Source: Dictyostelium discoideum (taxonomy: Eukaryota). Taken from it: 64,000 bases of DNA. Position numbers and translations under genes: made by a program. Below the pieces are notes generated by a model that saw only the letters and a program-made list of their open reading frames with translations, did not search any database and was not told where the DNA came from. The stretch spans positions 4,320,001 to 4,384,000 of the forward strand of contig CM000153.2 of assembly GCA_000004695.1 (NCBI GenBank). The letters run 5' to 3'. Below are positions 44,169-49,185 of this stretch, in pieces. Every line of letters starts with the position of its first letter. Positions within the stretch are counted from its first letter, which is position 1.

Positions 44169-45770
44169 TTATTCAATAGAGTAATACTTTTTAATTGTTT
44201 TATTAATAGATTGTATAAATTGAAATAGTTGAGGGGTTTGAATTATTTCATTTATTGTCAATGATTTAATTGATTTGTTTTTTGCAATCATTAATCCAAA
44301 TGTTTGAATAAATTGATCTGGTAATTTGTGTTTTTCAAATTCTCCAAGCGATTCTTTACATGTATGTTCAATTGAAATCGATTTTAATGTTTTATGATTT
44401 GAAATTGATTGAAATATATAATTCCAATAATATTTGAAATTTGAGTTTTTATTGTGTGGTTTATTGGTTTTTTTATTTCTTTCATCCTCTTCGTCATCGT
44501 CATCGTGTTCAAAACTACATTTACAAGGTTTTAATGATGCATTTCTATTTGATAAATGATATATTAGATTTTCAAAACATAAACCAATTGATAGGCCTTC
44601 TATTTTTGGACATCCTTTTAAAATGTAATATATTTGTTTGATAGATAAACTATCTGAATATGACAAATCATGTAAATAGTATATACTTTTATTTAAAGAA
44701 ATTTCCTTGAATGGAAAAATCCACTCATCATAATTTTCAACATCTATTGCCTTGATTTTACATCTTGAAAACAATTGCACTATTTCATTTGGTGGGAAAC
44801 ATGATTTTAAATGTATTCCTATTGAAAAAAAAAAAAAATAAAATAAAATAAAATTAATTAAATATGTGGGAGAGTGGGGTGTTAATAATTTTATAATATA
44901 CACAAATAAAATATTAATAATTCTATACATACCTCCGATTTGTTTTACATTATTTGTGATTTTGTTTATAAAACTTATACTATTATTAATATTAGAAAAT
45001 GGATAATACCCATTGTTTTTAGAATGAGAATAATTTATTGTTGATAAATTATTATTATTATTATTATTATTATTATTATTATTATTATTATTATTATTAT
45101 TATTATTATTATTATTATTATCATAATTCTTACTATTGTTATCATCAATTACTTTTATTTTAATATTTTCAAATTGGATATCACCCAATGTATCAAAATA
45201 AAAAGGTACATATAATTTTTTTAAATTTTTTAAATTTTTTAGAGTTGGATTTAATTTATTATTTATAAAATTAATATCATTAATTGGTTGAAGGTTTGTA
45301 ATTTTAAAATATTTTATATTTTCATATTGTAAAATACAATAATATGATGAATTAAAACAATTAAAATCAACAATAACATTCAATTCAGATTGTACCATAT
45401 GGAACCAATCCCAACAAACATTAGCAATTTGATTCTTAAGTCTACATAAATATTTTTTTTTTTCTATATTTCCGATGTTTGTTTTTATATTATTTGATTT
45501 ATTTATATATTTACACAAAATTTTAATTATAATACTTTGTAAATAAAATGGTATTGTATTTTGATTATCATCCACACAATTATTTTTATTTATATTGTTA
45601 TTTTTATTATTATCATTTTCATTATTATTATAATTTTTATTATTATTATTATTATTTGATATTTTAATTATCTTTTTTTCTTTATCATTTTCAATTAATG
45701 TTTGGGTTTCTCCTGTTCTTTTATTTTTTAAAACATTTTGATTAAATGAAGTTGATTTATAATTTTCCAT
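44169..45770 (-). CDS. Lineage-specific Asn-rich protein, paralog A, ~495 aa after removing an in-frame intron. Exons on the minus strand are 45770..44933 and 44818..44169.
   Basis: The ORF is open for 533 aa, but a canonical intron (GTATGT ... TTCAATAG, 114 nt, 44932..44819) lies in frame with no stop. Splicing gives ...NNVKQIGG|IHLKSCFPPNEIVQLFSRCKIK, which is collinear with paralog B (YTPIRIIELFKRCKIK). Motifs shared with 46711..49185 are YLQxxIIKxxC, WDWFHMV/KGWFHTV, YYILKGCPKIEGLS/YYVLMGADRIQQLS and C-x-CSF. Confidence 0.55.
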   Translation of the reverse strand: MENYKSTSFNQNVLKNKRTGETQTLIENDKEKKIIKISNNNNNNKNYNNNENDNNKNNNINKNNCVDDNQNTIPFYLQSIIIKILCKYINKSNNIKTNIGNIEKKKYLCRLKNQIANVCWDWFHMVQSELNVIVDFNCFNSSYYCILQYENIKYFKITNLQPINDINFINNKLNPTLKNLKNLKKLYVPFYFDTLGDIQFENIKIKVIDDNNSKNYDNNNNNNNNNNNNNNNNNNNNNNNNLSTINYSHSKNNGYYPFSNINNSISFINKITNNVKQIGGMYRIINILFVYIIKLLTPHSPTYLINFILFYFFFFSIGIHLKSCFPPNEIVQLFSRCKIKAIDVENYDEWIFPFKEISLNKSIYYLHDLSYSDSLSIKQIYYILKGCPKIEGLSIGLCFENLIYHLSNRNASLKPCKCSFEHDDDDEEDERNKKTNKPHNKNSNFKYYWNYIFQSISNHKTLKSISIEHTCKESLGEFEKHKLPDQFIQTFGLMIAKNKSIKSLTINEIIQTPQLFQFIQSINKTIKKYYSIE

Positions 45771-46710: not shown

Positions 46711-49185
46711 CTAAGGTTGTAATAAATAATTAAATATTGCCCTATCATCATTATAATTGTGACGATAATTTGTTTTCCTTATAGTAAAGGATTCGATATG
46801 TGGATATTGAGCAATTAATTTTTCAACTGATTCTATATATTCTTTTTTATTTTTATGTGTATTTATAAAAGTAGTTGTAAATCTTGTAATTGATTGATTT
46901 CCATGAGTTAAAATATATTCAAACAATTGAGCTGTATGAAAACTATAAAAATTAATTTTTTCTAAAGAGGTATTTTTGGCCAAAACCTCACCTAATGCAT
47001 AAATAAATTCGTTTGGAAATGCTGGTCTTTTGTGAAATTCTGATTCTGTTTCACTTTTTGAATTTCCAAAATTAATATTACCATTTGTATTATTATTATT
47101 ATTATTATTACTATTATTATTATTATTATTATTATTATAATTATTATTATTATTATTATTATTATTATTAATATTATTATTATTGATAATAAAATTTGGA
47201 ACGGGATTAATATTATTTAAACCATGATGATTATTATAAAAAAATTGACACCTATGTTTTATTGATAAAAACTTCAAGTATTTATGGTTTCTAATTATAT
47301 CTGAAATTGACTTCCAATATATCCGATTCATATCATATTTTTGATTAATATTATAATTATTATTATTATTATTATTACTATTATTATTATTATTATTATT
47401 ATTATTACTATTATTATTATTATTACTATTATTATTATTATTATTATTATTATTATTATTATTATTATTATTATTATTATTATTATTATTATTATTATTA
47501 TTATTATTATTATTATTATTATTATTATTATTATTATTATTATTATTATTATTATTATTATTATTATTATTATTATTATTATTATTACTATTTTGATTAT
47601 TATTATTATTTTGATTATTTTGGTTGAAACTACAGAAACAAGGTGGTGTTAATTTCTCTGTAACACAATATAATAAATTATCAAAACAAATATCAAACGA
47701 TAATTGTTGAATTCTATCGGCACCCATTAAAACATAATAAAGATCTTCCAATGATAATGTGATATCATATATTTCGAATTGACGCATTGAAAAATTGAAT
47801 GATTTATTTTCAAATAAATGTTTGAAAGGGAATTCATATGGATAAAACTCTAAACAAAATTTCTTTATTTTACACCTTTTAAACAATTCTATAATCCTAA
47901 TTGGTGTATAAAGTGAAATATTATTTATTATTTGAATTTTTTTTATATTTAATGAGACATTATGTTGATTATTATTATTATTATTATTATTATTATTATT
48001 ATTATTATTATTATTATTTTGGTTTAAATTAATATTTGTTTCACTAAATACTCTAATATTACTAAAACGGTCAAAGTCTATTGATTGAACTTTAATATTT
48101 TCAAAATTAACCAAACCTAGATACTCATTATATTCCATTATCGTTATTTTCTCCAGTAATGGTAATGATTTAATCTCTTCATTCAAAATATTTTTAAACC
48201 TAATTTCATCATCCAAATTAACTGTAATCTTTAAGGTTTTTATATTTGATGCTTTTAAAATCTTGAATTGACTGTTCAATATTGTTTCGTCTTCCAATTC
48301 GTTTTTCCAATTCGATTCAACATTTTGATCTTGAATTTGTTCAACACTTTCATTGTCATCATCTTCATCCTCATCATAATCACTATAGTCCCCAAAACCA
48401 TTATTATTAACTCTATAATTGTTTTTTTTATTATCATATATTTCATTGTTATAATTATTGGTATTATTATTATTATTGCCACTATTATTATTATTATTAT
48501 TATTATTATTATTATTATTATTATTATTATTATTATTATTATTATTATTATTATTATTATTATTATTATTATTATTATTATTATTATTATAATTATTGGA
48601 ATTTTTTATTTTTTCACACGTTTTTGGATTTAAAATTTTGAATGCTCTTTGAGGTGACCACTTATAATTAAAATTTATTGATACTGTAAGAAAATTTGAA
48701 ACTGTATGGAACCATCCTTTATTTACCAATGCTAAACTTAATGTTAGATTCTGAATCTCATTCTTTGTTGTTAAATTATATCTAAAAATTCTAGTGGTTG
48801 AATTATTATTTATAAAATTACATATCATTTTTATGATATATTGTTGTAAGTAATATGAAATTGTTGGTGATTGTTGAGATTGTTCACAAAGTTCTTGTGG
48901 GCTTAATAAAGTTGTAGTTGTAGTTGTAGCTATAGTTGTAGTTGTGGTTGATATGATAAATGGTTTGGATGGTTGAGAATTTGTGTCATTGTTATTATTA
49001 TTATTATCGGTATTTAAAAAACTATTGTCTTCTTTTACTATTTCGATTTTACAATTTTTGTCATCACCATTAGTATTATCTTGATATTTTATTCTTTTAA
49101 AAGAGTTTCCATTATCGTTAATATTTCTTTTATCGCATTCATTTTCATTCATATCATGGAGACTACTAAAAAGGTCTTTCTCCAT
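46711..49185 (-). CDS. Lineage-specific Asn-rich protein, paralog B, 824 aa, containing a poly-Asn tract of ~85 residues.
   Basis: It shares N-terminal, central and C-terminal blocks with paralog A (see above). Its (AAT)n tracts lie at 47341-47600, 47950-48000 and 48480-48600. The two genes are in tandem in the same orientation. Confidence 0.55.
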   Translation of the reverse strand: MEKDLFSSLHDMNENECDKRNINDNGNSFKRIKYQDNTNGDDKNCKIEIVKEDNSFLNTDNNNNNNDTNSQPSKPFIISTTTTTIATTTTTTLLSPQELCEQSQQSPTISYYLQQYIIKMICNFINNNSTTRIFRYNLTTKNEIQNLTLSLALVNKGWFHTVSNFLTVSINFNYKWSPQRAFKILNPKTCEKIKNSNNYNNNNNNNNNNNNNNNNNNNNNNNNNNNNNNNNNNNSGNNNNNTNNYNNEIYDNKKNNYRVNNNGFGDYSDYDEDEDDDNESVEQIQDQNVESNWKNELEDETILNSQFKILKASNIKTLKITVNLDDEIRFKNILNEEIKSLPLLEKITIMEYNEYLGLVNFENIKVQSIDFDRFSNIRVFSETNINLNQNNNNNNNNNNNNNNNNNQHNVSLNIKKIQIINNISLYTPIRIIELFKRCKIKKFCLEFYPYEFPFKHLFENKSFNFSMRQFEIYDITLSLEDLYYVLMGADRIQQLSFDICFDNLLYCVTEKLTPPCFCSFNQNNQNNNNNQNSNNNNNNNNNNNNNNNNNNNNNNNNNNNNNNNNNNNNNNNNNNNNNNNNNNNNNSNNNNNSNNNNNNNNNSNNNNNNNYNINQKYDMNRIYWKSISDIIRNHKYLKFLSIKHRCQFFYNNHHGLNNINPVPNFIINNNNINNNNNNNNNNYNNNNNNNNSNNNNNNNTNGNINFGNSKSETESEFHKRPAFPNEFIYALGEVLAKNTSLEKINFYSFHTAQLFEYILTHGNQSITRFTTTFINTHKNKKEYIESVEKLIAQYPHIESFTIRKTNYRHNYNDDRAIFNYLLQP
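47341..47600. repeat. Coding microsatellite (ATT/AAT)~85 encoding poly-Asn.
   Basis: An almost perfect trinucleotide array lies inside the CDS 46711..49185. Similar arrays lie at 42866-42990, 54890-54995, 37190-37260, 38170-38270 and 45055-45120. A (GTT)n array at 55880-55970 encodes a poly-Q of ~30 on the minus strand. Confidence 0.85.

Follow-up and report, generated by a model that had tools for sequence, protein, structure and literature searches.

The stretch analyzed here is a 64,000-nucleotide segment of Dictyostelium discoideum DNA (GenBank assembly GCA_000004695.1, contig CM000153.2, positions 4,320,001 to 4,384,000, hereafter referred to as the window), and the subject of this work is a pair of adjacent genes within it, gene A (44169..45770) and gene B (46711..49185), both on the minus strand. 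They are separated by a 940 bp gap that is nearly pure A+T, in a window whose G+C content is 14–34% and which is rich in (AAT)n and (CAA)n tracts. The NCBI assembly GCA_054883475.1 calls both genes, with products of 495 amino acids (aa) at the position of A and 824 aa for B. A profile hidden Markov model (HMM) of the family to which they belong recovers A from the window with E = 6e-98 and B with E = 6.5e-81, both having been part of that profile, and neither tblastn nor the family HMM finds a third paralog in the window. A and B are anciently diverged tandem paralogs of a family so far known from Dictyostelium alone. We consider it likely that they combine a divergent F-box with a following leucine-rich repeat (LRR) domain and serve as substrate receptors of the SCF (Skp1/Cul1/Rbx1) E3 ubiquitin ligase.

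Gene A is interrupted by a single intron. Because its 114 nt are a multiple of three and contain no stop codon, a mechanical open reading frame (ORF) finder reads through it and reports 533 aa, adding 38 hydrophobic junk residues (MYRIINILFVYIIKLLTPHSPTYLINFILFYFFFFSIG) to the product. These 38 residues fall in gaps of all 28 relatives in the family alignment, and subtracting them from 533 gives the 495 aa of the annotated product. The presence of the intron therefore means that the protein is 495 aa long and not 533.

The first-pass annotation had described A and B as Asn-rich tandem paralogs in the same orientation, and had singled out masking of low-complexity sequence as the test on which their relationship would stand or fall. 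Both proteins are strongly biased in composition (19.8% Asn in A and 31.4% in B), which favors an explanation of the A-B similarity as an artefact of common N/I/K-rich low-complexity sequence. Unmasked BLASTP of A against B gives collinear matches with E = 7e-11 and 9e-11. With every Asn run deleted and BLASTP run with SEG and composition-based statistics, the C-terminal half still aligns with E = 6e-21 (30% identity over 227 aa) and the N-terminal motif with E = 2e-8 (36% identity over 66 aa). Without the composition correction, the masked proteins form one collinear alignment of 145 bits over masked A 3–432 and masked B 55–547 (approximately 430 residues), whereas 300 composition-preserving shuffles of B reach a mean of 24.2 bits (standard deviation 3.5) and a maximum of 33.9 bits. 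The same blocks are, in addition, conserved in 27 other proteins. The masked E-values and the gap between 145 bits and the shuffle maximum show that the similarity is real and survives masking; they rule out the low-complexity artefact, to which we assign next to no probability.

Within the family, A is closest to B and B to A, at 37% identity over conserved columns, as expected for the tandem paralogs that they had been taken to be. The fact that this is only slightly above the 34–35% identity of each to a third D. discoideum protein, DDB_G0286245, points to an old duplication. The peptide blocks first quoted in support of the pairing are exact in 9 of 10 cases, while in the remaining one a single residue was wrong, as A reads QLFSRCKIKAIDVENY (QLFSRCKIK) and not ELFSRCKIK. 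Two further statements do not hold. The sequence between the blocks is not all (AAT)n, since it includes more conserved non-repeat blocks (e.g., ENIK.LKI, L..L.KI.I, FENIK, FPFK, and FP..FI..G...AKN.S), and B does not contain about 85 consecutive Asn, its longest pure run being 53 residues. The LRR domain and the intron of A had gone unnoticed in the first-pass annotation.

To describe the wider family, we used a search profile (A3) made of exact window translations only, with A exon 2 aligned to the C-terminal half of B. HMMER with this profile gives 17 matches in 1.84 billion cluster representatives, with E-values from 1e-22 to 4e-4 and thus none better than 1e-30. A separate homology search, crowded by 8000 low-complexity candidates, returned only 11 proteins. 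Names were looked up for 10 of the 17 profile matches and for all 11 proteins of the separate search (2 being common to both), and all are from Dictyostelium (D. discoideum, D. purpureum, D. firmibasis, D. citrinum, and D. dimigraforme); the small number of matches and the identity of every named one agree with the lineage specificity proposed earlier. A word-indexed protein search, queried with A exon 2 and with the alignment of masked A and B, gives no match, not even to A or B themselves, and neither does an exact look-up. The protein collections thus behave as if they lacked both proteins and any close orthologs, yet GCA_054883475.1 has gene calls for the two; a low-complexity filter or a hold-out could be the cause of this absence.

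Known members of the family include DDB_G0286245 (Q54M26), DDB_G0273011 and the D. purpureum proteins F0ZJR6 and F0ZQ03, and at least 8 paralogs are attributable to D. discoideum. Three members (F0ZJR6, F0ZQ03, and A0AAN7TXE9) bear the UniRef name “F-box domain-containing protein”. Full-length matches contain the N-terminal motif even though the query profile had no N-terminus. Its consensus is LPxYLQKxIIKxLCxxIN, followed by 17–30 variable residues and then LxLALV(S/C/N)xxWFxTLSxxLxVSVDFN. Further family blocks are KYSIIKxENIKxLKL, LxNLKKIxI and ITIxxLYYILKxSPxxxxLSxxICFDNLIYxL...CxC, then FxxYWxxIxxxIxNHKxLKxLxIxHxC and FPxxFIExFGSMIxNNKSIKxL..GFHTPQLFEYI..NNKSI, and a C-terminal LL..NxHIxxFxL module. 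A and B carry all of these in collinear order except that A is without the last C-terminal module, which is kept in B and most relatives; in the family alignment gene A ends approximately 60 aa short.

A tree of the family (alignment A7) has two deep branches, the first comprising A, B, DDB_G0286245, P0012, P0014–P0018, P0020, P0021, and P0023, and the second DDB_G0273011, P0022, P0024–P0028, P0035, P0038, and P0039. Tandem arrays recur within the family, as three members (489, 450, and 479 aa, with an intron in the second) lie head-to-tail at 5297..11437 of the examined locus of D. citrinum JBTAPK010000054.1. Apart from this, gene numbers alone hint that DDB_G0273009 and DDB_G0273011 of strain AX4, whose numbers are consecutive, are perhaps neighbors, and that DDB_G0286243, described as F-box-like by Boland et al. 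(2022), is next to DDB_G0286245.

The fold of the family was modelled with AlphaFold2 (AF2) from the 29-row alignment, the compact paralog DDB_G0286245 standing for the family as a whole. Its model has a predicted local distance difference test score (pLDDT) of 79.7 and a predicted template modelling score (pTM) of 0.80, with N-terminal helices at residues 5–23, 30–41, and 45–54, a first strand at 57–62 and, in all, about eleven alternating strand/helix units; loops 64–75, 273–299, and 336–340 are of low confidence. The model of gene A, which starts at residue 64 and retains the intron-encoded residues, has the same layout (helices 12–31, 39–53, and 57–66 in fragment numbering) at a pLDDT of 70.5 and a pTM of 0.67; among its low-confidence parts are the Asn tract and a large share of those intron-encoded residues. 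In the models, the repeated beta-strand/helix units form a solenoid with a parallel beta-sheet. Searching the PDB with the paralog model, Foldseek finds FBXL17 in an SCF complex (E = 1.1e-6, TM 0.53), COI1 (6e-6) and TIR1 (1.2e-5), followed by MAX2, D3 and FBXL17 again, these F-box/LRR matches being interleaved with the LRRs of NLRP proteins and NLRC4. With the A model, TIR1 is the top match (1.6e-4), followed by COI1, SKP2, and FBXL2. The best PDB match of the family sequence profile (A5) is also TIR1, with E = 0.0086; the match is made up of four weak stretches, and in one of them the family segment 'slalvsweWFkt' is paired with helix 3 of the TIR1 F-box, 'SVSLVCKSWYEI'; the TLR2 LRR follows at 0.03–0.05. 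Because of the AF2 models, the Foldseek matches and the TIR1 profile match, we read the C-terminal domain of the family as a predicted LRR solenoid of the ribonuclease inhibitor-like or cysteine-containing type, and the modelled architecture of the whole protein resembles that of F-box/LRR receptors.

The asparagine tracts can be placed on the predicted fold. B contains four of them, of 42, 17, 77, and 32 residues (168 in total). Projected by alignment on the paralog model, all tracts of both proteins lie in coil at or next to the low-confidence loops 64–82, 153–159, 284–297, and 333–340, and the tract of A and tract 2 of B occupy one and the same loop. Asn runs encoded by (AAT)n are typical of the D. 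discoideum genome. The runs seen here may be replication-slippage expansions of (AAT)n that would be tolerated because each lies, in the predicted model, in a solvent-exposed inter-repeat loop. Coordinates of the tracts and other features are collected in Table 1.

Table 1. Positions of genes A and B and of their features in the window.
Feature	Coordinates	Strand	Description
Gene A, ATG to stop	44169..45770	-	Exon 1 44933..45770, intron 44819..44932, exon 2 44169..44818; stop codon 44169..44171; from ORF and sequence
Gene A intron	44819..44932	-	114 nt, in-frame and stop-free, GTATGT...TTCAATAG (3' end AATAG); canonical splice sites
Gene A divergent F-box-like region (candidate)	45360..45557	-	aa 72–137, TIPFYLQSIIIKILCKYIN...IANVCWDWFHMVQSELNVIVDFN; helices 1 and 2 separated by an insertion of ~22 aa; alignment A8
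Gene A LRR solenoid region (predicted)	44172..45350	-	aa 141–495 spliced, intron inside; alternating strand/helix in AF2 model
Gene A (AAT)24 tract	45048..45119	-	24 Asn, aa 218–241; coil after beta-strand of paralog model; pLDDT <50 in A model
Gene B, single exon	46711..49185	-	824 aa; stop codon 46711..46713; identical 824-aa product in NCBI GCA_054883475.1, no Pfam match
Gene B divergent F-box-like region (candidate)	48667..48864	-	aa 108–173, TISYYLQQYIIKMICNFIN...LSLALVNKGWFHTVSNFLTVSINFN; IS in place of LP
Gene B LRR solenoid region (predicted)	46714..48273	-	aa 305–824 including C-terminal capping module (KKEYIESVEKLIAQYPHIESFTIRK...); collinear with A and 27 relatives, fold modelled on paralog
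Gene B Asn tract 1	48463..48588	-	aa 200–241, 40 of 42 Asn; between F-box-like region and first clear LRR; loop 64–82 of paralog model
Gene B Asn tract 2	47968..48018	-	aa 390–406, 17 Asn; same loop position as tract of A
Gene B Asn tract 3	47356..47586	-	aa 534–610, 74 of 77 Asn, longest pure run 53 (all AAT); directly after conserved PCxCSF; disordered loop 273–299 of paralog model
Gene B Asn tract 4	47089..47184	-	aa 668–699, 29 of 32 Asn; after NHKYLKFLSIKHRC repeat; low-confidence loop 333–340 of paralog model

The first-pass annotation had suspected a degenerate F-box in the N-terminal motif, and several lines of evidence now support this hunch. In the AF2 models of the paralog and of A, three helices directly precede the LRR domain, an agreement with F-box/LRR proteins at the level of structural elements. 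For sequence comparison we used a reference of ten classical F-boxes, each of which scores above the curated cut-off of PF12937, PF00646, or PF18511. Aligned to this reference with hhalign, the family N-terminus matches helices 2/3 with P = 4.7e-4, the family consensus for the F-box-like region of B being placed on helix 2/3, and with a relaxed alignment threshold the LP dipeptide and helix 1 align collinearly too, across a 25-residue gap after helix 1. This gap corresponds to the family insertion, and when the insertion is deleted in silico in ten members, 5 of the 10 match PF00646 as their best or only family over profile positions 1/4 to 35–38 of 43. Their E-values are 2.3e-4 (21.4 bits against a gathering score of 20.5, positions 1–38), 1.2e-3, 0.016, 0.039, and 0.058. 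Judging from the alignments, the residues that the family conserves appear to be those conserved in F-boxes, namely LP, the helix-1 hydrophobics and LV(C/S)KxW. Together with the F-box/LRR fold matches and the Skp1 interactors that carry the motif (see below), these results lead us to infer a genuine F-box in the N-terminal helices. Pfam searches of full-length A and B and of their N- and C-terminal pieces return only noise (Secretin_N_2, DUF3439, Glyco_transf_22, and Vta1).

Relatives with this motif have been described among Skp1 interactors. Boland et al. (2022, J Biol Chem 298:102305, supplementary Fig. S3; PMC9485057) predict F-box-like sequences in the interactors DDB_G0273009 and DDB_G0273173. 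The former is of class pv, found in vegetative co-immunoprecipitation (co-IP), with a substrate-receptor domain given as 'LRR+' and the entry 'veg' in the PhyA-enhanced column; the latter, of class p, has the same motif and is entered among the interactors but carries no co-IP code (PMC9485057). The motif common to the two is LLPLYIQKYIIKIL*IKRLMLTLALV-SQDWFKTLSNNLT, from which the loops between helices 1 and 2 (CRYID..KNNKSI..DDYRGNESQ and CKHIDRNKKLIDSIYMDIDYRDNEKL) were removed, and the related DDB_G0278029 (with co-IP data) and DDB_G0281481 (FALVNKCWFESISNFTVSTID) are also listed (PMC9485057). In our alignment the published interactor N-termini are nearly identical to those of family members P0035 and P0037 (DDB_G0273011), and the A+B family profile (A5) matches the P0035/P0037 subfamily with E of about 1e-71 to 1e-99. 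Proteins with the N-terminal motif therefore associate physically with Skp1, as co-IP of the relatives shows.

The mechanism that we propose for A and B rests on this architecture, in which a short low-complexity leader would be followed by the divergent F-box (helix 1 LPxYLQKxIIKxLC, the insertion of 17–30 residues, and helices 2/3 L.LALV(S/C/N)xxWFxTLS) and then by the LRR solenoid with its roughly ten repeats. The F-box would dock on Skp1 and thereby place the protein in the SCF ligase, while the LRR surface would recruit a substrate for ubiquitylation. Skp1 binding by A and B themselves, and with it a role in ubiquitin ligation, would follow from what their relatives do.

A number of results weigh against this reading. 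Three of them, namely the missing Pfam F-box match for A and B (also with the insertion deleted), the low hhalign probability and the lost LP proline of B, favor an alternative in which A and B are LRR scaffolds outside the SCF, their N-terminal helices being a mere capping element with no contact to Skp1, as in RanGAP-like or NLR-like modules. Native A and B and their isolated N-terminal regions do not match PF00646, PF12937, or PF18511 at E ≤ 10, nor do the 17 relatives in native form match a Pfam F-box model at E ≤ 1. A, B and three others have no PF00646 match even with the insertion deleted, A and B being the most divergent members at the F-box, and B is without the Pro of the LP dipeptide. 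The hhalign probability is just 33%, and a search of PDB sequences with the N-terminal profile by itself yields noise but no F-box protein. The LRR domain fares similarly with Pfam, whose LRR models match neither A nor B in unedited form and match 1 of the 17 relatives (LRR_At5g56370, E = 0.048). Moreover, neither A nor B appears in the supplement of Boland et al., whose 107 gene ids include no DDB_G02863xx, and since the published interactors appear by their N-terminal motif to go with branch 2 (they stood outside the A7 alignment), the Skp1 evidence comes from the branch without A and B. A mere capping element seems difficult to reconcile, however, with the finding that the residues kept across the family look like those kept in F-boxes, that five relatives match PF00646 once the loop is removed, that the published Skp1 interactors include proteins with the motif, of which one has a co-IP code (PMC9485057), and that UniRef names three members as F-box proteins. 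On balance we regard the scaffold explanation as unlikely, though it retains appreciable weight.

It is also important to consider that one or both genes may be decaying, functionless duplicates in which the conservation is residual. The early end of A, some 60 aa before the family C-terminus, is what might be expected of decay, as are the 31% Asn content of B with its 168 residues of tract, its lost F-box proline, and the position of both proteins as the most divergent members at the F-box. However, ORFs of 495 and 824 codons have remained intact in DNA of 15–17% G+C, where stops arise easily, all family blocks and four near-invariant cysteines are kept, and the intron of A retains canonical splice sites. 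All Asn tracts avoid secondary-structure elements, and long tracts of this kind are common in functional Dictyostelium proteins. Decay therefore seems improbable to us, more so than a scaffold function, and a divergent F-box/LRR receptor is the reading that we retain for both genes.

The four cysteines just mentioned are the most conserved positions of the 29-sequence family alignment, each being invariant or conserved to at least 90%. In A they are at aa 398, 416, 418, and 471 in unspliced numbering (LCFENL, PCKCSF, and EHTCK), and in B they occur in ICFDNL, PCFCSF, and KHRCQ. The CxC pair stands directly before the longest variable loop and the HxC one repeat later. The LRR domain of human FBXL5 contains an Fe-S cluster, and Dictyostelium Skp1 is itself regulated by oxygen. 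By analogy, the four cysteines might conceivably bind a metal, either Zn or an Fe-S cluster, although we give this very little credence, and the idea is weakened by the fact that 2 of the 4 are at the ordinary Asn/Cys ladder position of an LRR. If it were true, the family would be a Dictyostelium-specific group of redox- or metal-responsive receptors.

The surroundings of the pair contain other genes and some spurious ORFs. Two ORFs of the window agree residue for residue with proteins of D. discoideum AX4, XP_637847 (UniProt Q54LY4) and DDB_G0286307. Convergent with A is an ORF on the plus strand (41114..44053), the stop codons of the two lying about 115 bp apart. It spans 979 aa, while the called gene is 933 aa with its start at an internal ATG near 41252; it contains poly-Gln and poly-Asn tracts, has no Pfam match and is unrelated to the A/B family. 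Upstream of B is a three-exon EF-hand gene on the minus strand (50399..51121), whose 183-aa product matches EF-hand_7 and starts with MGQQNSK, which is myristoylation-like; its splice sites were derived by hand, and the product length agrees with the called gene. The listed ORFs 46097..46393 (minus strand), 47341..47652 (plus), and 48268..48633 (plus) are artefacts, being either poly-Phe/Ile/Leu from T-rich intergenic DNA or antisense (AAT)n read as poly-Ile.

With this analysis, two “hypothetical proteins” without a Pfam match gain a testable function as probable SCF substrate receptors. The family to which they are tied is confined to Dictyostelium, grows by tandem duplication and escapes the standard domain models tried (Pfam). 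The F-box candidate list of Boland et al. (2022), which those authors already considered to be probably underestimated (PMC9485057), is thereby extended. The pair also provides a clear example of long inserted Asn homopolymers, the longest of 53 residues, that are confined to the inter-repeat loops of a predicted solenoid. F-box/LRR proteins as a kind were known already, as were the members of this family in the published Skp1-interactor supplement, so that what is new is the assignment of A and B, which were unannotated. What the analysis contributes is annotation and a definition of the family, and current understanding is not challenged.

In comparison with known systems, the predicted layout is shared with the animal FBXL17, FBXL2, FBXL3, and SKP2 and the plant TIR1, COI1, and MAX2/D3, all of which have three helices followed by an LRR solenoid. 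Sequence identity to these is only 7–12%, at which level no orthology can be claimed, and the A/B family differs from them in that it matches no Pfam F-box or LRR model, its helix 1 is longer and followed by an insertion, and its repeats are irregular with long loops. Within Dictyostelium, the FNIP-repeat F-box proteins (PF05725) are likewise lineage-expanded, LRR-like and N/I/K-rich, and some of them carry F-box-like N-termini (PMC9485057). Their repeat sequences are unlike those of the A/B family, and we reject membership in that group, as neither A nor B nor any of 17 relatives has a PF05725 match at E ≤ 1.

Closer at hand are DDB_G0273009, DDB_G0273173, and DDB_G0278029, which have the same motif (LPLYIQKYIIKIL ... 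LALVSQDWFKTLSNNLTVSVDFN), F-box helices 1 and 2 set apart by an insertion, and an LRR-type C-terminal domain, but which belong to the other major branch with approximately 24–30% identity to A and B. The Skp1 co-IP evidence belongs to relatives such as DDB_G0273009 and DDB_G0278029, while Skp1 binding by A and B is predicted. A further point of comparison is DDB_G0286245 (Q54M26, “hypothetical protein”). It differs from A and B in being a compact protein of 445 aa without Asn tracts, with the shortest insertion between helices 1 and 2 (~17 aa) and the LP dipeptide retained. It nevertheless shares their blocks from LPxYL to the C-terminus, and it is located on the same chromosome as the window with a nearby gene number.

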